From an uncultured Clostridia bacterium (GTDB lineage: Bacteria > Bacillota > Clostridia > TANB77 > CAG-508): DNA of 64,000 bases. Where the stretch lies: assembly GCA_963931445.1 (NCBI GenBank), contig OZ007016.1, positions 1,475,279-1,539,278 on the forward strand, read 5' to 3'. The notes under the pieces are model-generated. The model was not told the origin of the DNA and made no database searches. It was given only the letters and a program-made list of their open reading frames with translations. The translations under genes were made by a program, and so were the position numbers. Positions within the stretch are counted from its first letter, which is position 1, and each line of letters starts with the position of its first letter. Shown here one piece after another: positions 3,398-31,150 of the stretch.

Positions 3398-4375
3398 TTA
3401 TATTATACATAAACCAATTATACAAAATAGTAAGGTAATTATGCTAAATACTGATACTATTTTATTCTCCTTCCAACCTGATAATTCAAAGTGATGATGT
3501 ATTGGTGTCATTTTAAACACTCTATTTCCAGTTTTCTTAAAATAAGCAACCTGTATCATTACAGATACTGTTTCTATTATTGGTATTATAGCTATAATCA
3601 ATAATAATAATGGCATTTTTAAATATAATGCAATACCTGCTATTGCTCCACCTAACATAAGTGATCCTGTATCTCCCATCATAACTTTAGCTGGATTTAA
3701 GTTAAATAATAAAAATCCTAAACATGCTCCTATTAATATAGTTCCTACTGCTGTTACTTCTTTTATTCCTAATAAAATAGATATTACAGTTAAACATGTA
3801 ATTATTATTGTTGTAACACTAGTAGATAATCCATCTATTCCATCTGTTAAATTAATTGCATTTGTTGTTGCAAGCATTACTAATACTGCAAATGGTATGT
3901 ATAACCATATTGGAAGAATCAAATATTCTTTTATAAATGGTATATATATTTGTGTACCCATATTAAGTACTTTTACAAGTACTATTGTATAGGCTACTGA
4001 CACAACTAATAATCCTAACATTTTTGCCCTTGGGCTTAATCCTTTTGTATTTTTTAATATTAATTTTTTAAAATCATCTATAAAACCAATTAATCCAAAT
4101 CCTACTGAAACACCTATTAATGGTAAAATAGCATTAGCTATTTTAGGTTGATCTTTTGCAAAATCCATGTATAAAAATCCACCTACTGCTATTAGTACCA
4201 AAATCATTATTATTCCACCCATAGTTGGTGTTCCCTGCTTTTTCAAGTGTGATTGTGGACCTTCTTCTCTTTCAATTTGACCGACTTTTAGCTTTCTTAA
4301 AATTGGTACTATAATTAAAGATAATATTACACTTGCTAAAAAGGATAATAGTAATATTTTGTTTTGATATTGCAT
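3398..4375 (-). CDS. mraY: phospho-N-acetylmuramoyl-pentapeptide transferase
   Basis: Multi-TM protein with MraY motifs (DDxxK..LxPxxxK-like, HHHFE) in dcw context. Confidence 0.9.
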   Translation of the reverse strand: MQYQNKILLLSFLASVILSLIIVPILRKLKVGQIEREEGPQSHLKKQGTPTMGGIIMILVLIAVGGFLYMDFAKDQPKIANAILPLIGVSVGFGLIGFIDDFKKLILKNTKGLSPRAKMLGLLVVSVAYTIVLVKVLNMGTQIYIPFIKEYLILPIWLYIPFAVLVMLATTNAINLTDGIDGLSTSVTTIIITCLTVISILLGIKEVTAVGTILIGACLGFLLFNLNPAKVMMGDTGSLMLGGAIAGIALYLKMPLLLLIIAIIPIIETVSVMIQVAYFKKTGNRVFKMTPIHHHFELSGWKENKIVSVFSIITLLFCIIGLCII

Positions 4376-4403
4376 ATATTTTCCTCCTTTGTCTTTATTT
4401 ATT

Positions 4404-5897
4404 TTATTTCTTTTTATTTTCTACCATTTCATCTATTATTTTATTTACTATTAGGTTTTCATCAAATGGATATCTTTTTTTATTTATCTCTTGATATTGT
4501 TCATGACCTTTTCCTGCAAGAACAATTATATCTTTTTTGTTTGCCATGCTTATTGCTTTTTTTATTGCCTCTACTCTATCTACAATACATTCATATTTTC
4601 CATTTGTCTTTTTTGTTCCTTTTTCTATGTCCATTATTATATCTTCTGGTTTTTCAGTTCTAGGATTATCTGATGTAATAATTGTATAATCTGCTACTCT
4701 TCCTGAAGCCTCTCCCATCATTGGTCTTTTATTTTTATCTCTATCTCCACCACATCCAAATACTGAAATTACTCTACCTTTTGTATATATTTTTACAGAT
4801 GATAATATTTTTTCTAAACTTTCTGGTGTATGTGCATAATCAATCATTATTGTTAAACCTAATTTATTTTCTACAAGTTCACTTCTTCCTGGTACTCTTA
4901 TATTTTCTAATGCTTCTTTTATATTTTCACTTTTGCATCCAAATTGCATAGATACAAATATTGCAGCTAATGAATTATATACACTAAATCTTCCTGGTAT
5001 AGATACTTTTACCCTTTCGTTCTTATCTCCTAATTTTACTTTAAAATCCACATACTGATTTGTTACAGTAATATCTTTTGCTAATAAATCACAATGATTA
5101 TCTATTCCATATGTTGAAAATTGACATTCTGGTACAAGTTTTGGAATTGTTATAGAATATACATCATCTGCATTTATAAATCCTTTTTTGCACATTTTAA
5201 ACAATTTTACTTTTGAACTAAAATACTCTTCCATATCTTGATGCTCTTTGCTACTAATATGATCTTCTGCTAAATTTGTAAATACTCCTATATCAAAATC
5301 ACATCCTGCCACTCTTTCTAATTTTAAGCTTTGTGATGATACTTCCATTACAACTGCTTCGCATTTTTCTTCTAGCATTTTACTAAATATTTCTTGTAAT
5401 TTCAAACTTTCTGGTGTTGTATTTTCGTTATCTGCAATCTTCTTATCTCCTACATATGAAGCTACAGTTCCTATTAAGCCTACTTTTATTCCCTGTTTTT
5501 GCAATATGTCTCTTATCATGTATGTAGTAGTTGTTTTTCCCTTAGTTCCTGTAACCCCTATTAATTTCATTTTCTTTGAAGGATTTTTATAAAAATTGCA
5601 TGCTGCTATTGCTAAAGCATATCTTGTATCCTTTGTTAAAACTAAAACTATATCTTCTGGAAATTCTTTTATTTTATTTTTATCAAATTCATTTTCTTGA
5701 GCTAATATTACTTTTGCACCATTTTTTATTGCATCCATAATATGTTCATGTCCATTTGTTTCAAAGCCTTTTATTGCTACAAACATATCATTTTCTTCTA
5801 CATCTTTAGAATTATTTTTAATATTTTTAACATTTATATCTATATTGCCTTTTACCTTTAAATCTTCTAATCCTAATAGAATACTTTTTAAATCCAT
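4404..5897 (-). CDS. murE: UDP-MurNAc-L-Ala-D-Glu:meso-DAP ligase
   Basis: Mur ligase domains with P-loop GVTGTKGKTTTT and the DNPR motif specific for DAP-adding MurE. Confidence 0.9.
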   Translation of the reverse strand: MDLKSILLGLEDLKVKGNIDINVKNIKNNSKDVEENDMFVAIKGFETNGHEHIMDAIKNGAKVILAQENEFDKNKIKEFPEDIVLVLTKDTRYALAIAACNFYKNPSKKMKLIGVTGTKGKTTTTYMIRDILQKQGIKVGLIGTVASYVGDKKIADNENTTPESLKLQEIFSKMLEEKCEAVVMEVSSQSLKLERVAGCDFDIGVFTNLAEDHISSKEHQDMEEYFSSKVKLFKMCKKGFINADDVYSITIPKLVPECQFSTYGIDNHCDLLAKDITVTNQYVDFKVKLGDKNERVKVSIPGRFSVYNSLAAIFVSMQFGCKSENIKEALENIRVPGRSELVENKLGLTIMIDYAHTPESLEKILSSVKIYTKGRVISVFGCGGDRDKNKRPMMGEASGRVADYTIITSDNPRTEKPEDIIMDIEKGTKKTNGKYECIVDRVEAIKKAISMANKKDIIVLAGKGHEQYQEINKKRYPFDENLIVNKIIDEMVENKKK

Positions 5898-23603: not shown

Positions 23604-23882
23604 TTATTTTTTTACTACTATGAATTTAATTACTTCATCAGTAATTCTGTAGTTTCTTTCAAGTTCTGCAATTAGTTTTGGATTAGCTTTAAAATCATAT
23701 ACAACATAGTAACCTTCTTTATTTTTGTTTATTTCATAAGCTAATTTCTTTTTTCCTAATTCATTAACTTGTTCTACTTCTCCGTCAGTATTAATCAATG
23801 TTTGAAATTTTTCAATTAATGCTTTTAAAGCATTTTCTTCAACATTAGGATTAATAATGACAACACTTTCGTATTTGTTCAT
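23604..23882 (-). CDS. rpsF: 30S ribosomal protein S6
   Basis: S6 family; conserved rpsF-ssb-rpsR operon. Confidence 0.9.
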   Translation of the reverse strand: MNKYESVVIINPNVEENALKALIEKFQTLINTDGEVEQVNELGKKKLAYEINKNKEGYYVVYDFKANPKLIAELERNYRITDEVIKFIVVKK

Positions 23883-24003
23883 TACAATTCACCTCCTCTT
23901 GGATATGTAACCTATGGACTTATGCCATAAGTAAGGAAAAAATAGCATCGCTATTTCTAACATTATTATTTTAGCATTAATTTATAAAAAAATCAAGAGA
24001 TTT

Positions 24004-24146
24004 TTAAATTCGTTTTAGGGACAGGTCTCCCAGCGAACTTTTTTTCGTTTTAGGGACAGGTCTCTTGACACAATAAATTGTCAAGAGACCTGTCCCTAAA
24101 ACGAAAAAAAGTTCGCTGGGAGACCTGTCCCTAAAACGAATTTGAC
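24004..24146. repeat. Perfect palindrome of about 143 bp, about 45% GC, with CGTTTTAGGGACAGGTCTC twice in each arm
   Basis: The arms are exact reverse complements around the centre CAATAAATT. It contains four GGTCTC/GAGACC sites. Confidence 0.85.
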
Positions 24147-24229
24147 ACATTTTTATTTTTATAGTAATATACTATCATAGTTTAAGAATGCATTACAAAT
24201 TATTAGTAGTAAAAGAAAGGAGTTTTTTA

Positions 24230-24400
24230 TTCTTAAGCGCCTGGACATATTATTATGTATGTTGACGAGGTAGAGATTTATCGAATTTTTCGGCGGATGA
24301 TCTCTTGGCATTTAATTACTGCCATAAATATTAGTTAAAGGCTTGTAGTAATGCAAGTATACAAAGCTAATAGGGTAATGTTTTATTTGTATTGTTTTCT
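24230..24400 (+). ncRNA. glmS ribozyme (GlcN6P-dependent) in the glmS 5' UTR
   Basis: AGCGCCTGGAC...GTTGACGAGGTAGAG.TTATCGAATTTTTCGGCGGATG matches the glmS ribozyme core. Confidence 0.8.
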
Positions 24401-24431: not shown

Positions 24432-26285
24432 ATGTGTGGTATTGTAGGGTACATTGGTACAAAAAAAGCTACACCAATATTAGTAGATGGTCTTTTATGT
24501 TTAGAATATAGAGGGTATGATTCCGCTGGAATTGCAACTTTAGAAAAAAATGAAATTAAGGTTATGAAAGATAAAGGAAGAGTAAGTAATTTATATAATT
24601 TAGATGGAATAAATACTTTAGAAGGAACTGTGGGAATAGCTCATACAAGATGGGCAACACATGGTAAACCATCTAAAGAAAATTCTCACCCCCATACTGA
24701 TAATAGTAATACTTTTGCAGTTGTGCATAATGGAATTATTGAAAATTATTCGGATTTACGAACTTTTTTAAGTTCAAAAGGTTATACTTTCTTTTCTCAA
24801 ACAGATACTGAAGTTATTCCTAATTTAATTCATTATTATTTTTACAATGGTTCTGTTTCTGTATTAAATGATAATAAAGAAAAATTATTAGGTGCTGTAA
24901 AATTGGCTATACAAGATTTAAAAGGTAGTTATGCTATAGAAGTTATTTCTCCTTTATGCCCTAATGAAATAATTGTTGTTAGAAAAGATAGTCCTCTTGT
25001 TATAGGAAAAGGAGAAAATGAAAATTATATAGCTTCTGATATTCCAGCTATATTAAAATATACTAAAAATTTCTATTTACTTGATGATAATGAATTTGCT
25101 GTAGTATCTACTAATACTATTAACTTTTTTGATAATACTTTAGAAGAACATAATAAGACTATTAAAAATATTGATTGGGATGCAAATGCTGCTGGAAAAG
25201 AAGGTTTTGATGATTACATGCTTAAAGAAATCTTTGAACAACCAACCGCAATAAGAGAAACTATTGGTTCTAGATTTAGTTTAGGAGAAAAATGTTCTTT
25301 TGATGACATCGAAATTTCTAAAGAATATTTAAATAATGTTAATAAAATTTATATAGTTGCATGTGGTACAGCTATGCATGCAGGTTTAACTGGAAAAACT
25401 ATACTTGAAAATCTTTGCCAAATTCCTACTGTGGTAGATATTGCATCTGAATTTAGATATAGAAATCCACTTATAGATGAGCAAACTTTATGCATATATA
25501 TTAGTCAATCTGGAGAAACAGCTGATACTATTGCAGCATTGAAACTTGCTAAACAAAAAGGTGCTAAAACTTTGGCTATTTCAAATGTTATAGGAAGTTC
25601 TATTACAAGAGAAGCTGATTATTCTATATACACTCATGCTGGACCTGAAATTGCTGTTGCTTCTACTAAAGCTTATTCTTCTCAAGTAGTTTTAATTGCA
25701 ATTTTGGCAGTATATTTTGCTGAAATATTAGAACGCTGTGATAAAAAAATTATTGAAAGATTAAAGGAAGATATTATAGATCTTCCATCTAAAGTAGAAA
25801 AAATATTGGATGATACTGAAATAATTAAAGAATTTGCAAAAAAAGTATATACAGAAAAAGATATGTTCTTTTTAGGAAGAGGAACAGATTATAATGTTGC
25901 TTTAGAAGGTTCTTTAAAATTAAAAGAAATATCTTACATTCATTCAGAAGCATATGCTGCTGGAGAATTGAAACATGGTCCTATAGCACTTATTGAAAAT
26001 GATGTAACAGTAATTGGAATTATTACTGATTCAAACCTAGTGGAAAAATCTATTAGTAATATTCAAGAAGTTGTTACAAGAGGTGCTAAAACATTAATTA
26101 TTACTAATCAAATACTTCCTAATAGTAATTTTGATTTTATAATCAATATACCAAAAACTAATTTTTTAATTTCACCTATTCTTTCTGTAATACCTATGCA
26201 ACTTATTGCATATTATATTGCTAAATTTAAAGGTTTAGATGTAGATAAACCTAGAAACCTAGCAAAATCTGTAACAGTAGAATAA
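24432..26285 (+). CDS. glmS: glutamine--fructose-6-phosphate aminotransferase
   Basis: N-terminal MCGIVGY with catalytic Cys2 and two SIS domains; AGGAGG RBS. Confidence 0.95.
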   Translation: MCGIVGYIGTKKATPILVDGLLCLEYRGYDSAGIATLEKNEIKVMKDKGRVSNLYNLDGINTLEGTVGIAHTRWATHGKPSKENSHPHTDNSNTFAVVHNGIIENYSDLRTFLSSKGYTFFSQTDTEVIPNLIHYYFYNGSVSVLNDNKEKLLGAVKLAIQDLKGSYAIEVISPLCPNEIIVVRKDSPLVIGKGENENYIASDIPAILKYTKNFYLLDDNEFAVVSTNTINFFDNTLEEHNKTIKNIDWDANAAGKEGFDDYMLKEIFEQPTAIRETIGSRFSLGEKCSFDDIEISKEYLNNVNKIYIVACGTAMHAGLTGKTILENLCQIPTVVDIASEFRYRNPLIDEQTLCIYISQSGETADTIAALKLAKQKGAKTLAISNVIGSSITREADYSIYTHAGPEIAVASTKAYSSQVVLIAILAVYFAEILERCDKKIIERLKEDIIDLPSKVEKILDDTEIIKEFAKKVYTEKDMFFLGRGTDYNVALEGSLKLKEISYIHSEAYAAGELKHGPIALIENDVTVIGIITDSNLVEKSISNIQEVVTRGAKTLIITNQILPNSNFDFIINIPKTNFLISPILSVIPMQLIAYYIAKFKGLDVDKPRNLAKSVTVE

Positions 26286-28139: not shown

Positions 28140-28375
28140 AATAAAGCATTGATAAAAGATTAGTAATAAAACCAATTTTATTTAGAGAGGCTATGGTTGG
28201 TGAAAATAGCATAAAAAGTTTTATGAATCTACTTTTAGAGCTTCTTATGAAAATAAGACCGAGTAATGCTAGGTTACAAGCATTTTAAAGTTGTCAATTA
28301 ATTTTGAATAATTAAGGTGGTACCGCGACTATTTCGCCCTTATGCTTTTTTGCATATGGGATTTTTATTTTATTA
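28140..28375 (+). promoter_or_regulatory. T-box riboswitch leader of serS
   Basis: AATTAAGGTGGTACCGCG T-box sequence at 28310-28327, followed by a terminator/antiterminator and a T-run. Confidence 0.75.
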
Positions 28376-28388
28376 GGAGGTATTTTAT

Positions 28389-29669
28389 ATGATAGACATT
28401 AAGTTTTTAAGAGAAAATCCAGATTTAGTAAGAGAAAATATTAAGAAAAAATTCCAAAATCACAAACTTATTTTAGTAGATGAAATTTTAGAATTAGATA
28501 AAAAAAATAGAGAAACTAAATTAAATGGTGATGAACTTAGAATGAAAAGAAATTCTTTAAGTTCTGAAATTGGAAATTTAATAAGAAATGGAAAAAAAGA
28601 TGAAGCAGAATCTATAAAGTCACAAGTTCAAAAAATAAACATTGAATTAGAAAAAAATGAAAAACTCGAATTAGAATATTCAAATGCAATCACTGAGAAA
28701 ATGATGAAAATTCCTAATATGATACATGAATCTGTACCAATTGGTGAAGATGATAGTAAAAATGTAGAAATAGAAAAATTTGGTGAACCTATAGTTCCTG
28801 ATTATGAAATACCATATCATGCAGATATTATGGAAAATTTAAATGGATTAGACTTAGATTCTGCGCGTAGAGTTGCTGGAAATGGTTTTTACTATTTAAT
28901 GGGAAATATTGCAAGACTTCATTCAGCAATACTTTCTTACGCTAGAGATTTTATGATTAATAAAGGTTTTACTTATTGTATTCCACCATATATGATTCGT
29001 AGTGATGTTGTTACAGGTGTTATGAGTTTTGAAGAAATGGATGCAATGATGTATAAAATTGAAGGTGAAGATTTATACTTAATTGGAACCAGTGAACATT
29101 CAATGATTGGAAAATTTAAAGGTCAAATTCTTCAAAAATCTAATATGCCATATACTATGACATCTTATTCACCATGTTTTAGAAAAGAAAAAGGTGCTCA
29201 TGGAATAGAAGAGCGTGGTATTTATAGAATACACCAATTTGAAAAACAAGAAATGATAGTTGTATGCGAACCTGAAGATAGTTGGAAATGGTATGATAAA
29301 TTATGGTCATATACAGTAGAATTATTTAGGAGTATGGACATTCCTGTTAGAACTCTTGAATGTTGCAGTGGAGATTTAGCTGATTTAAAAGCTAAAAGTT
29401 GTGATGTTGAAGCTTGGAGTCCTAGACAAAAAAAATATTTTGAAGTTGGAAGTTGTTCTAATTTAACTGATGCACAAGCGAGAAGATTAGGAATTAGAAT
29501 TAAAGGTGAGAAAGGAAATTATTTTGCACATACTTTAAATAATACTGTTGTGGCTCCACCTAGAATGCTAATTGCTTTTTTAGAAAATAATTACAATAAA
29601 GATGGAAGTATCAATATTCCAGAAGTACTTCGCCCATATATGGGTGGAATTTGTAAATTAACACCTTAG
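28389..29669 (+). CDS. serS: serine--tRNA ligase
   Basis: N-terminal coiled coil and class II aaRS core. Confidence 0.95.
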   Translation: MIDIKFLRENPDLVRENIKKKFQNHKLILVDEILELDKKNRETKLNGDELRMKRNSLSSEIGNLIRNGKKDEAESIKSQVQKINIELEKNEKLELEYSNAITEKMMKIPNMIHESVPIGEDDSKNVEIEKFGEPIVPDYEIPYHADIMENLNGLDLDSARRVAGNGFYYLMGNIARLHSAILSYARDFMINKGFTYCIPPYMIRSDVVTGVMSFEEMDAMMYKIEGEDLYLIGTSEHSMIGKFKGQILQKSNMPYTMTSYSPCFRKEKGAHGIEERGIYRIHQFEKQEMIVVCEPEDSWKWYDKLWSYTVELFRSMDIPVRTLECCSGDLADLKAKSCDVEAWSPRQKKYFEVGSCSNLTDAQARRLGIRIKGEKGNYFAHTLNNTVVAPPRMLIAFLENNYNKDGSINIPEVLRPYMGGICKLTP

Positions 29670-30770: not shown

Positions 30771-30808
30771 AAATGGTGTCCTTATGTCAAGGACACCATT
30801 TTTTTATT
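30771..30808 (+). terminator. Rho-independent terminator
   Basis: AAAAATGGTGTCCTTATGTCAAGGACACCATTTTTTT. Confidence 0.85.
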
Positions 30809-31150
30809 GTATAGGAAAAATCGACTTTTTATTTAAAATTTCAGTATTTTTAATGATTTTTGCTATACAACAAGGTTAGGCATCCTTAGACTGTCCGAGC
30901 GAAGCGAGTGACATGTATTTCGCACTTGCTTCAGAGGAATACTTGGCGAAATGCCTTTCTTATTGTATAGCAAAAATCGACTTTTTATTTAAAATTTCAG
31001 TATTTTTAATGATTTTTGCTATACAACAAGGTTAGGCATCCTTAGACTGTCCGAGCGAAGCGAGTGACATGTATTTCGCACTTGCTTCAGAGGAATACTT
31101 GGCGAAATGCCTTTCTTATTGTATAGCAAAAATCGACTTTTTTCGTGATA
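30800..31150 (+). repeat. Repeat element A, tandem array of two full 156-bp units plus a partial third
   Basis: The units abut head to tail (…CTTTCTTATTGTATAGCAAAAATCGAC…) with no spacer. Confidence 0.85.

Follow-up and report, generated by a model that had tools for sequence, protein, structure and literature searches.

The genes rpsF and glmS diverge from a shared intergenic region in the window (the whole 64-kb stretch of DNA that was analysed). The rpsF gene (ribosomal protein S6; 23604-23882, minus strand) is followed by ssb and rpsR, and the glmS coding sequence, beginning MCGIVG, occupies 24432-26285 on the plus strand. Each has a predicted promoter: TTGATT-17-(TG)TAAAAT for rpsF (23968-23996, minus strand) and TTGACA-17-TAATAT for glmS (24142-24170, plus strand). 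The leader of glmS contains the glmS ribozyme/riboswitch (24225-24382, plus strand; Rfam RF00234, 90.1 bits). Between the two promoters, just where a sequence-only reading had put it, lies a long perfect palindrome.

Other features of the window were recorded along the way. A T-box leader (28140-28344; Rfam, 99 bits) precedes the seryl-tRNA synthetase gene (28389-29669). Downstream of a small ORF, the intergenic stretch 30800-31142 holds a 156-bp unit in 2.2 tandem copies, 98% identical, with a GC-rich palindrome inside. A local change in the sign of the GC skew was considered as a mark of a replication origin and rejected: the whole window has negative skew except for an island of plus-strand genes at 24-31 kb.

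The palindrome spans 138 bp (24006-24143). Its arms, at 24006-24070 and 24079-24143, are 65 nt each and pair without a single mismatch, according to both a direct complementarity check and a repeat finder. They enclose an 8-nt centre, CAATAAAT (24071-24078), the middle two bases of which also pair. The sequence-only reading had described a 143-bp perfect palindrome at 24004-24146: the palindrome stands, but at the shorter extent; the centre then given, CAATAAATT, is one base over; and the GC content, put at about 45%, is 41%, against 25.6% for the window. Its description of the internal repeats was accurate. The 21-nt sequence TTCGTTTTAGGGACAGGTCTC occurs four times, as two direct copies per arm at 35-nt spacing with the arms head-to-head, and not once in 100 shuffles. 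Folded as RNA or as a single strand, the palindrome reaches -125 kcal/mol (z = -23.8).

Each arm is a tandem doublet of one repeat unit, built around the core GGGACAGGTCTC, which is near-palindromic by itself (GGGAC-AG-GTCTC). The left arm (24006-24070, plus strand) reads core, CCAG, a short CGAA/TTCG hairpin, TTTTA and core again, with TTGACA at its end; the right arm (24079-24143, minus strand) is its exact reverse complement. A covariance model of the unit, R1, identifies exactly four units in the window, all in the palindrome, and the next best match has E = 0.56. The two outer units are full: unit 1 (24006-24041, plus strand; 51.6 bits, E = 2e-16) reads TTCG-TTTTA-GGGACAGGTCTC-CCAG-CGAA, and unit 4 (24108-24143, minus strand; 51.6 bits) adjoins the glmS -35 box. 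Of the inner two, unit 2 (24042-24076, plus strand; 25.4 bits, E = 2e-6) has TTGACA in place of the 3' half-stem, and unit 3 (24075-24107, minus strand; 27.1 bits, E = 4e-7) is its mirror image. (The palindrome centre, 24065-24084, carries in this way two extra TTGACA hexamers, TTGACA-CAATAAAT-TGTCAA, at the point where a CCAG-CGAA half-stem would normally complete the inner units. A similar inner unit terminus, GGTCTC-TTGTCC, is seen in the 2 + 2 cluster of locus L030, described below.)

Several familiar classes of element do not fit. At gathering thresholds Rfam reports the glmS ribozyme and the T-box but nothing at the palindrome, and a terminator scan found no intrinsic terminator there. 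Nor is this a CRISPR array: such an array has direct repeats set apart by unique spacers of similar length, whereas these units abut with a 35-nt period and conserved linkers, and their orientation inverts. A long RNA hairpin, one of the functions first proposed, is unlikely here because the element is upstream of both predicted promoters.

Those promoters are native. The rpsF -35 box (TTGATT, 23996-23991) is 9 bp outside the palindrome and conserved in all strains, as is the promoter as a whole; of the glmS -35 box (TTGACA, 24142-24147), only the first two T residues overlap it. Moreover, the relative L051 (86% identity in GlmS) has no repeat units at all, yet both of its promoters are intact, with 36 bp from -35 box to -35 box (AAGCAA...TTGACACATTTT...TAGTAATAT) and with TATTTGACACA...TAGTAATAT already upstream of glmS. 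The original proposal that the ends of the palindrome supply the two -35 hexamers is therefore not upheld.

In closer relatives the site carries two, three, or four units. L043 (GlmS 97% identical) has two, constituting the right arm only, with a -35 gap of 99 bp, and keeps the native CACATATTTACATAATATT... spacer. L044, which has the same GlmS protein as L043, carries four, with one arm mismatch and a gap of 145 bp. In L049 and L001 (GlmS about 100%) there are three units and a gap of 110 bp: the left arm is short by one 35-bp unit, and the central 8-mer is inverted (ATTTATTG). The window, L002, and L003 (GlmS 100%) share four units, perfect arms, and the 145-bp gap. The four-unit form is found, then, in two lineages 3% apart in GlmS. 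Comparison of the spacer in related genomes, suggested at the outset, fits the recent origin that had been offered as one option, and the palindrome appears to be a derived, recent, and unstable state.

The same comparison turned up a difference downstream. In L043 (2214-2500) and L044 (2168-2500), both with 97% GlmS identity, the whole glmS ribozyme is missing, about 230 bp being absent from the stretch that separates the glmS promoter from the ribosome-binding site. An Rfam search recognizes the ribozyme in L049, L051, and the window but in neither L043 nor L044. One species group would thus include a natural loss of a GlcN6P-responsive ribozyme.

The repeat unit is found far beyond this locus. 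An exact scan for the 18-mer GTTTTAGGGACAGGTCTC, with one genome per species, returned 20 loci, 14 of them in four uncultured Clostridium/Clostridia MAGs (CAMMVE01, CAKNQJ01, UMGS1788/USJU01, and CAKPGS01). The remaining six are isolated matches in unrelated phyla, roughly the chance level for a collection of this size by our own estimate. With up to two mismatches allowed, the 12-nt core has 46 matches in the MAG loci and the window, versus 1.8 in shuffles; R1 has 26 strong matches (E < 1e-10) in the MAG loci. The possibility that the repeat is a common genomic one, raised at the outset as an argument against local specificity, is thereby largely realized: the 18-mer is dispersed and intergenic in related Clostridium genomes. 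A metagenome scan with a 21-mer yielded a single extra locus, a doublet upstream of pth (L055). No second copy of the 138-bp element was found in the species-representative genomes, the metagenome scan, or the 64-kb window. Plasmid and phage collections contained no match, hence no sign of a plasmid or phage origin. A literature search for the 12-mer core retrieved only unrelated primer sequences.

The unit is a short, imperfect palindrome of 34-36 nt (about 35), within the range of about 20-40 nt expected of a hairpin-capable REP (repetitive extragenic palindrome) sequence, and it has an invariant block, GGGACAG. CAKNQJ shares the form of the window's outer units; in CAMMVE the unit reads TGTCG-N5-GGGACAGGTCTC-N4-CGACA. 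When 30 units are aligned, 88.6% of cells in the outer stem and the inner GGGA/TCTC stem are paired, versus 37-55% with the partner slid. Moreover, the stem pair at columns 4-32 switches across lineages, from G-C in 21 sequences to U-A in eight. Clusters take several forms: single, tandem with a period of 34-35, inverted, or mixed. Every one is intergenic, and the distance to a start or stop codon is often just 0-20 nt. Seven of the 17 clusters not associated with a RAYT gene (see below) have inverted units, nine are direct doublets, and one is single. Inverted clusters include L017 (31-nt arms, 97% complementarity) and the 2 + 2 cluster of L030 (58-nt arms, 79% complementarity).

Two further observations concern individual copies. 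In two different species, REP doublets stand on both sides of an MBL-fold hydrolase gene located between hisS and relA (L012, 2420-2491 and 3296-3367; L024, 5692-5762 and 6490-6560). Their positions are orthologous and their orientations the same, which suggests long persistence of some copies. Separately, a REP doublet abuts the -35 box of pth in L055 (760-800) and that of glmS in the window (24130-24150), with an identical junction, AAAACGAATTTGACA, although the two promoters are unrelated. Sequence-specific insertion next to TTGACA was considered on account of this shared junction, but other copies have unrelated flanks, and the match may be a coincidence. The TTGACA at the glmS side of the junction is native.

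In related species, the repeats are associated with a gene for a RAYT, a REP-associated tyrosine transposase of the Y1/HUH type. Two inverted units 885 bp apart in L025 (UMGS1788) enclose an ORF of about 260 aa (3706-4485). Its product matches Pfam Y1_Tnp (2.7e-13; 50.6 bits, above the cutoff of 23), and its only NCBIfam match is REP_Tyr_transpos (56.8 bits, below the equivalog cutoff of 80). The flanks are inverted copies of GGGACAGTCCCC-CAAC-CGACAgttTGTCG-GTTTTA-GGGACAGGTCTC, and the right one contains the exact 18-mer of the window. Many homologues occur in Clostridia, under the name 'REP element-mobilizing transposase RayT' in some sources. The HVH motif and a Y-I-H-Q-N-P tyrosine motif are invariant among them. 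These HUH and Y motifs align weakly with E. coli TnpA-REP (PDB 4ER8; E = 0.02) when a profile is used; a PDB search with the single protein retrieved nothing. All these RAYTs have a conserved C-terminal extension of about 120 aa.

The gene order is also conserved. At every locus with enough flanking DNA to judge (L025, L034, L035, L037-L041, and L056), with RAYT identities of 45-88%, the order is GH15 glucoamylase, RAYT, radA (and disA). RAYT at the judged loci thus behaves as a single-copy, vertically inherited gene at a fixed place. At most of these loci, inverted modules whose cores are of the GGGACAG type or GGGTCAGACCC enclose the gene, and the arrangement of a RAYT within inverted REPs was seen in related species only (L025, L034, L037, L039, L041, and L056). 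Homologues at 45-70% identity at the GH15-radA locus have inverted flanks that keep GGGACAG-type cores; the hairpin between the cores is specific to the lineage (CCGACA/TGTCGG, GCGACA/TGTCGC, CGGTAA/TTACCG, or GGAA/TTCC). (Many of the RAYT-bearing contigs in public assemblies measure no more than about 1 kb; short-read assembly presumably stops at the repeats on either side.)

The 64-kb window itself contains no RAYT gene. Among about 240 listed homologues, none is assignable to the window species; all recovered RAYTs are from other species. No RAYT match lies on a contig of more than 400 kb, and contigs of the window species are 0.76-1.6 Mb. The closest RAYT clades found have cores or hairpins different from those of the window unit: the closest hairpin type, in the P0013 clade, is GGAAC-TTTTTT-TTCC, with a different core.

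Together, these results make it probable (about 0.8) that the palindrome is a four-unit cluster of REP-type repeats with REPIN architecture, a passenger between two native promoters. Comparative sequence analysis shows its family membership, dispersal, extragenic site, hairpin covariation, strain polymorphism, and link to RAYT in relatives, along with the native status of the promoters. The REPIN architecture is assigned because the arms are colinear, in alignment, with the modules that flank RAYT in L025, L034, and L037, as well as with dispersed doublets, in the same head-to-head orientation. It comprises inverted REP modules with a short spacer in one hairpin of about 100 bp (here, 65-nt arms and an 8-nt spacer). 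Each arm consists of a single doublet, 'core (GGGACAGG...) - short hairpin - core', and modules of this kind bound the RAYT gene head-to-head; the window element resembles a pair of RAYT ends that are separated by 20 bp and have lost the gene. Dispersed extragenic copies are many in the related MAGs. The window genome was scanned over 64 kb, and its copy number may be low, since that distance holds one cluster. The effect on expression of rpsF and glmS is probably neutral or mildly disturbing.

How might such a cluster arise? By analogy with known systems, the units would be spread, and the element mobilized, by RAYT acting on hairpins in single-stranded DNA. A one-arm state like that of L043 most likely came first, since L043 keeps the native spacer that four-unit alleles lack. 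The second arm would have come later, replacing about 33 bp of that spacer, through insertion of a second doublet or a template-switch inverted duplication; perhaps the step was purely a local duplication. The arms may be identical through recency or through gene conversion within the palindrome. Recombination between arms, suggested by the flipped centre in one lineage (L049 and L001), would yield such a flip and could also keep the arms identical.

Some findings count against a RAYT-driven origin. The two large REP super-families of Di Nocera et al. 2013 carry a GTAG or CGTC tag at one end of the palindrome (PMC3733652); by inspection, neither tag nor its complement is present in the unit consensus or the window arms. 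Folded as single-stranded DNA, one arm of the window variant is weak (-4.7 kcal/mol, z = -0.4); the flank of the L025 RAYT, by contrast, reaches -13.1 kcal/mol (z = -4.9). The NCBIfam score of the L025 RAYT is below the cutoff of 80. Finally, neither the 64-kb window nor the listed homologues yielded a RAYT for this species, and copy density in the 64 kb looks low.

A selfish REP cluster might since have acquired a structural role: extruding as a cruciform under negative supercoiling, or binding RAYT, gyrase, or a nucleoid protein, and so insulating or coupling the two promoters. Negative supercoils accumulate between divergent promoters in the twin-domain model, and REP/BIME elements of E. 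coli bind gyrase and IHF. The perfect 65-bp arms and 8-nt loop sit exactly between two strong-looking divergent promoters, whose -35 boxes have been moved from 36 to 145 bp apart, and the four-unit form occurs in both of the lineages noted above. However, it is not conserved beyond close strains, and variants with no units, two, three, or an IS disruption exist naturally. A structural role is judged unlikely.

The sequence-only reading had offered, as one example of a function, a binding array for a dimeric or tetrameric regulator. On the four GGGACAGGTCTC cores, such a regulator would co-control the rpsF and glmS promoters. The near-palindromic core and the symmetric placement of four copies between two -35 boxes are what one might expect of an operator. 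Such an operator would be locus-specific and conserved along with its promoters, but the repeat is absent from L051, reduced in L043, and dispersed elsewhere. The same unit occurs in many unrelated intergenic regions of related genomes, where the 18-mer even flanks a RAYT gene; a related species and some close strains keep the promoters with no units or two. Besides, glmS is already under ribozyme control. The regulator array is very improbable.

Insertion sequences at the same spot raise another possibility: that the palindrome is a MITE or what remains of a DDE-type IS once an internal deletion has reduced it to its two ends. In L008 (1-1130) an rve-type (DDE) IS, and in L004 (821-2375), L007, and L009 an IS30-like element with 19-nt inverted repeats, lie immediately upstream of the rpsF promoter; all four strains share identical RpsF with the window. 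L004 keeps an outer unit tail, AACGAATTTA, beside its IS, and in L009 the IS adjoins native spacer. (The DNA upstream of rpsF in L004 is no longer glmS.) However, the IS of L008 is not the source of the repeat, because it joins in the middle of a unit (...ATATAC|ACCTGTCCCTAAAACGAA) and so was inserted into it. The IS30-like element of L004 was tried as parent of the palindrome and rejected, its inverted repeats being unrelated to the units. Moreover, the neighbouring IS elements all have ends unrelated to the units, comparison with the empty site of L051 reveals no target-site duplication, and the repeat family flanks a Y1 transposase. A DDE-type origin thus has very little chance of being correct. 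The rpsF-glmS site is an insertion hot spot, possibly owing to its repeats. REP units in E. coli are known targets of IS insertion.

Palindromes are classic assembly artefacts, and three short-read contigs (L006, L032, and L033) do end inside this one, the behaviour expected of a true palindrome; but a fold-back chimera is almost certainly not the explanation, because among the contigs encoding identical RpsF or GlmS two from different samples, with names suggesting different assemblers, carry the same structure (L003, a 764-kb 'tig' contig with a Canu-style name from sample ERZ21563600, which matches the window at 100% identity through 4 kb that take in the palindrome, and L002, a 'ctg...l' contig with a hifiasm-style name from sample ERZ21549435), an independent short-read assembly of the sister lineage (L044; GlmS 97% identical) spans it with one arm mismatch, and related two-unit and three-unit alleles exist. 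The palindrome is not an assembly artefact: these assembled contigs contradict the fold-back mis-join that the sequence-only reading had asked to exclude.

The REP-type cluster, with the RAYT genes of related species, largely qualifies as a REP/REPIN-RAYT system, and in kind it is an ordinary one. RAYTs are characteristically single copy, at a fixed locus, and flanked by REPs (PMC5581495; 10.1101/2021.07.10.451892). As in the REPIN-RAYT systems of Pseudomonas and Enterobacteria (PMC3116915; PMC5581495; 10.1101/2021.07.10.451892), short extragenic palindromic repeats occur as singlets, tandems, and inverted doublets in a hairpin of about 100 bp, and flank, in inverted orientation, a single-copy Y1/HUH gene at one locus across species. 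The differences are several. Here the host is a Firmicute of low GC content; a tandem doublet makes up each arm, giving four cores rather than two; copy number appears modest (one cluster in 64 kb); the GTAG/CGTC tag is lacking; and the RAYT is distant from E. coli TnpA-REP, with its C-terminal extension. The REP/BIME elements of E. coli, served by TnpA-REP (YafM; PDB 4ER8), are likewise intergenic mosaics of alternating or tandem units. However, BIMEs are mostly at gene 3' ends inside transcripts, whereas the window cluster precedes two promoters, and its sequence is not related to theirs.

Similarities extend to other small elements. IS200/IS605-derived non-autonomous elements (PATEs) also have subterminal hairpins at their ends and lack a target-site duplication, and they too are presumed to be mobilized by a Y1 transposase on single-stranded DNA. 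Unlike theirs, the transposase associated here is single-copy and fixed at one locus, as is a RAYT, rather than a multicopy IS. BOX, RUP, and SPRITE in pneumococci and bcr in Bacillus cereus resemble the window family in being intergenic, structured, and strain-variable in low-GC Gram-positive hosts. They have no sequence relationship to it and are not known to flank a RAYT.

REPIN-RAYT systems have mainly been studied in Proteobacteria, in the literature cited here. Clostridia are mentioned as hosts of Group 1 RAYTs, and abundant REPs are reported only for Groups 2 and 3 (PMC5581495). In its most ambitious form, the conclusion would be that gut Clostridium has a new Firmicute REPIN-RAYT system, comprising a RAYT between GH15 and radA and a GGGACAG-core REP family. 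The rpsF-glmS site would then be a REPIN birth series (empty, tandem doublet, perfect 2 + 2 palindrome, then unit loss and loop flip), and the cruciform-prone palindrome would measurably alter supercoiling-dependent expression from both promoters. All of this together is a long shot.

At the strength of the main reading, a presumed regulator site for rpsF and glmS gives way to an element of the REP/REPIN type in a gut Firmicute of low GC content. Short-read assemblies break at palindromes like this one, which also draw IS insertions beside essential genes. One site with zero, two, three, and four units among close strains provides natural material on the origin of inverted doublets. Moreover, a Clostridium REP family would extend the picture drawn from Groups 2 and 3, with a RAYT that stays fixed at its locus and hairpins that change with the RAYT lineage.
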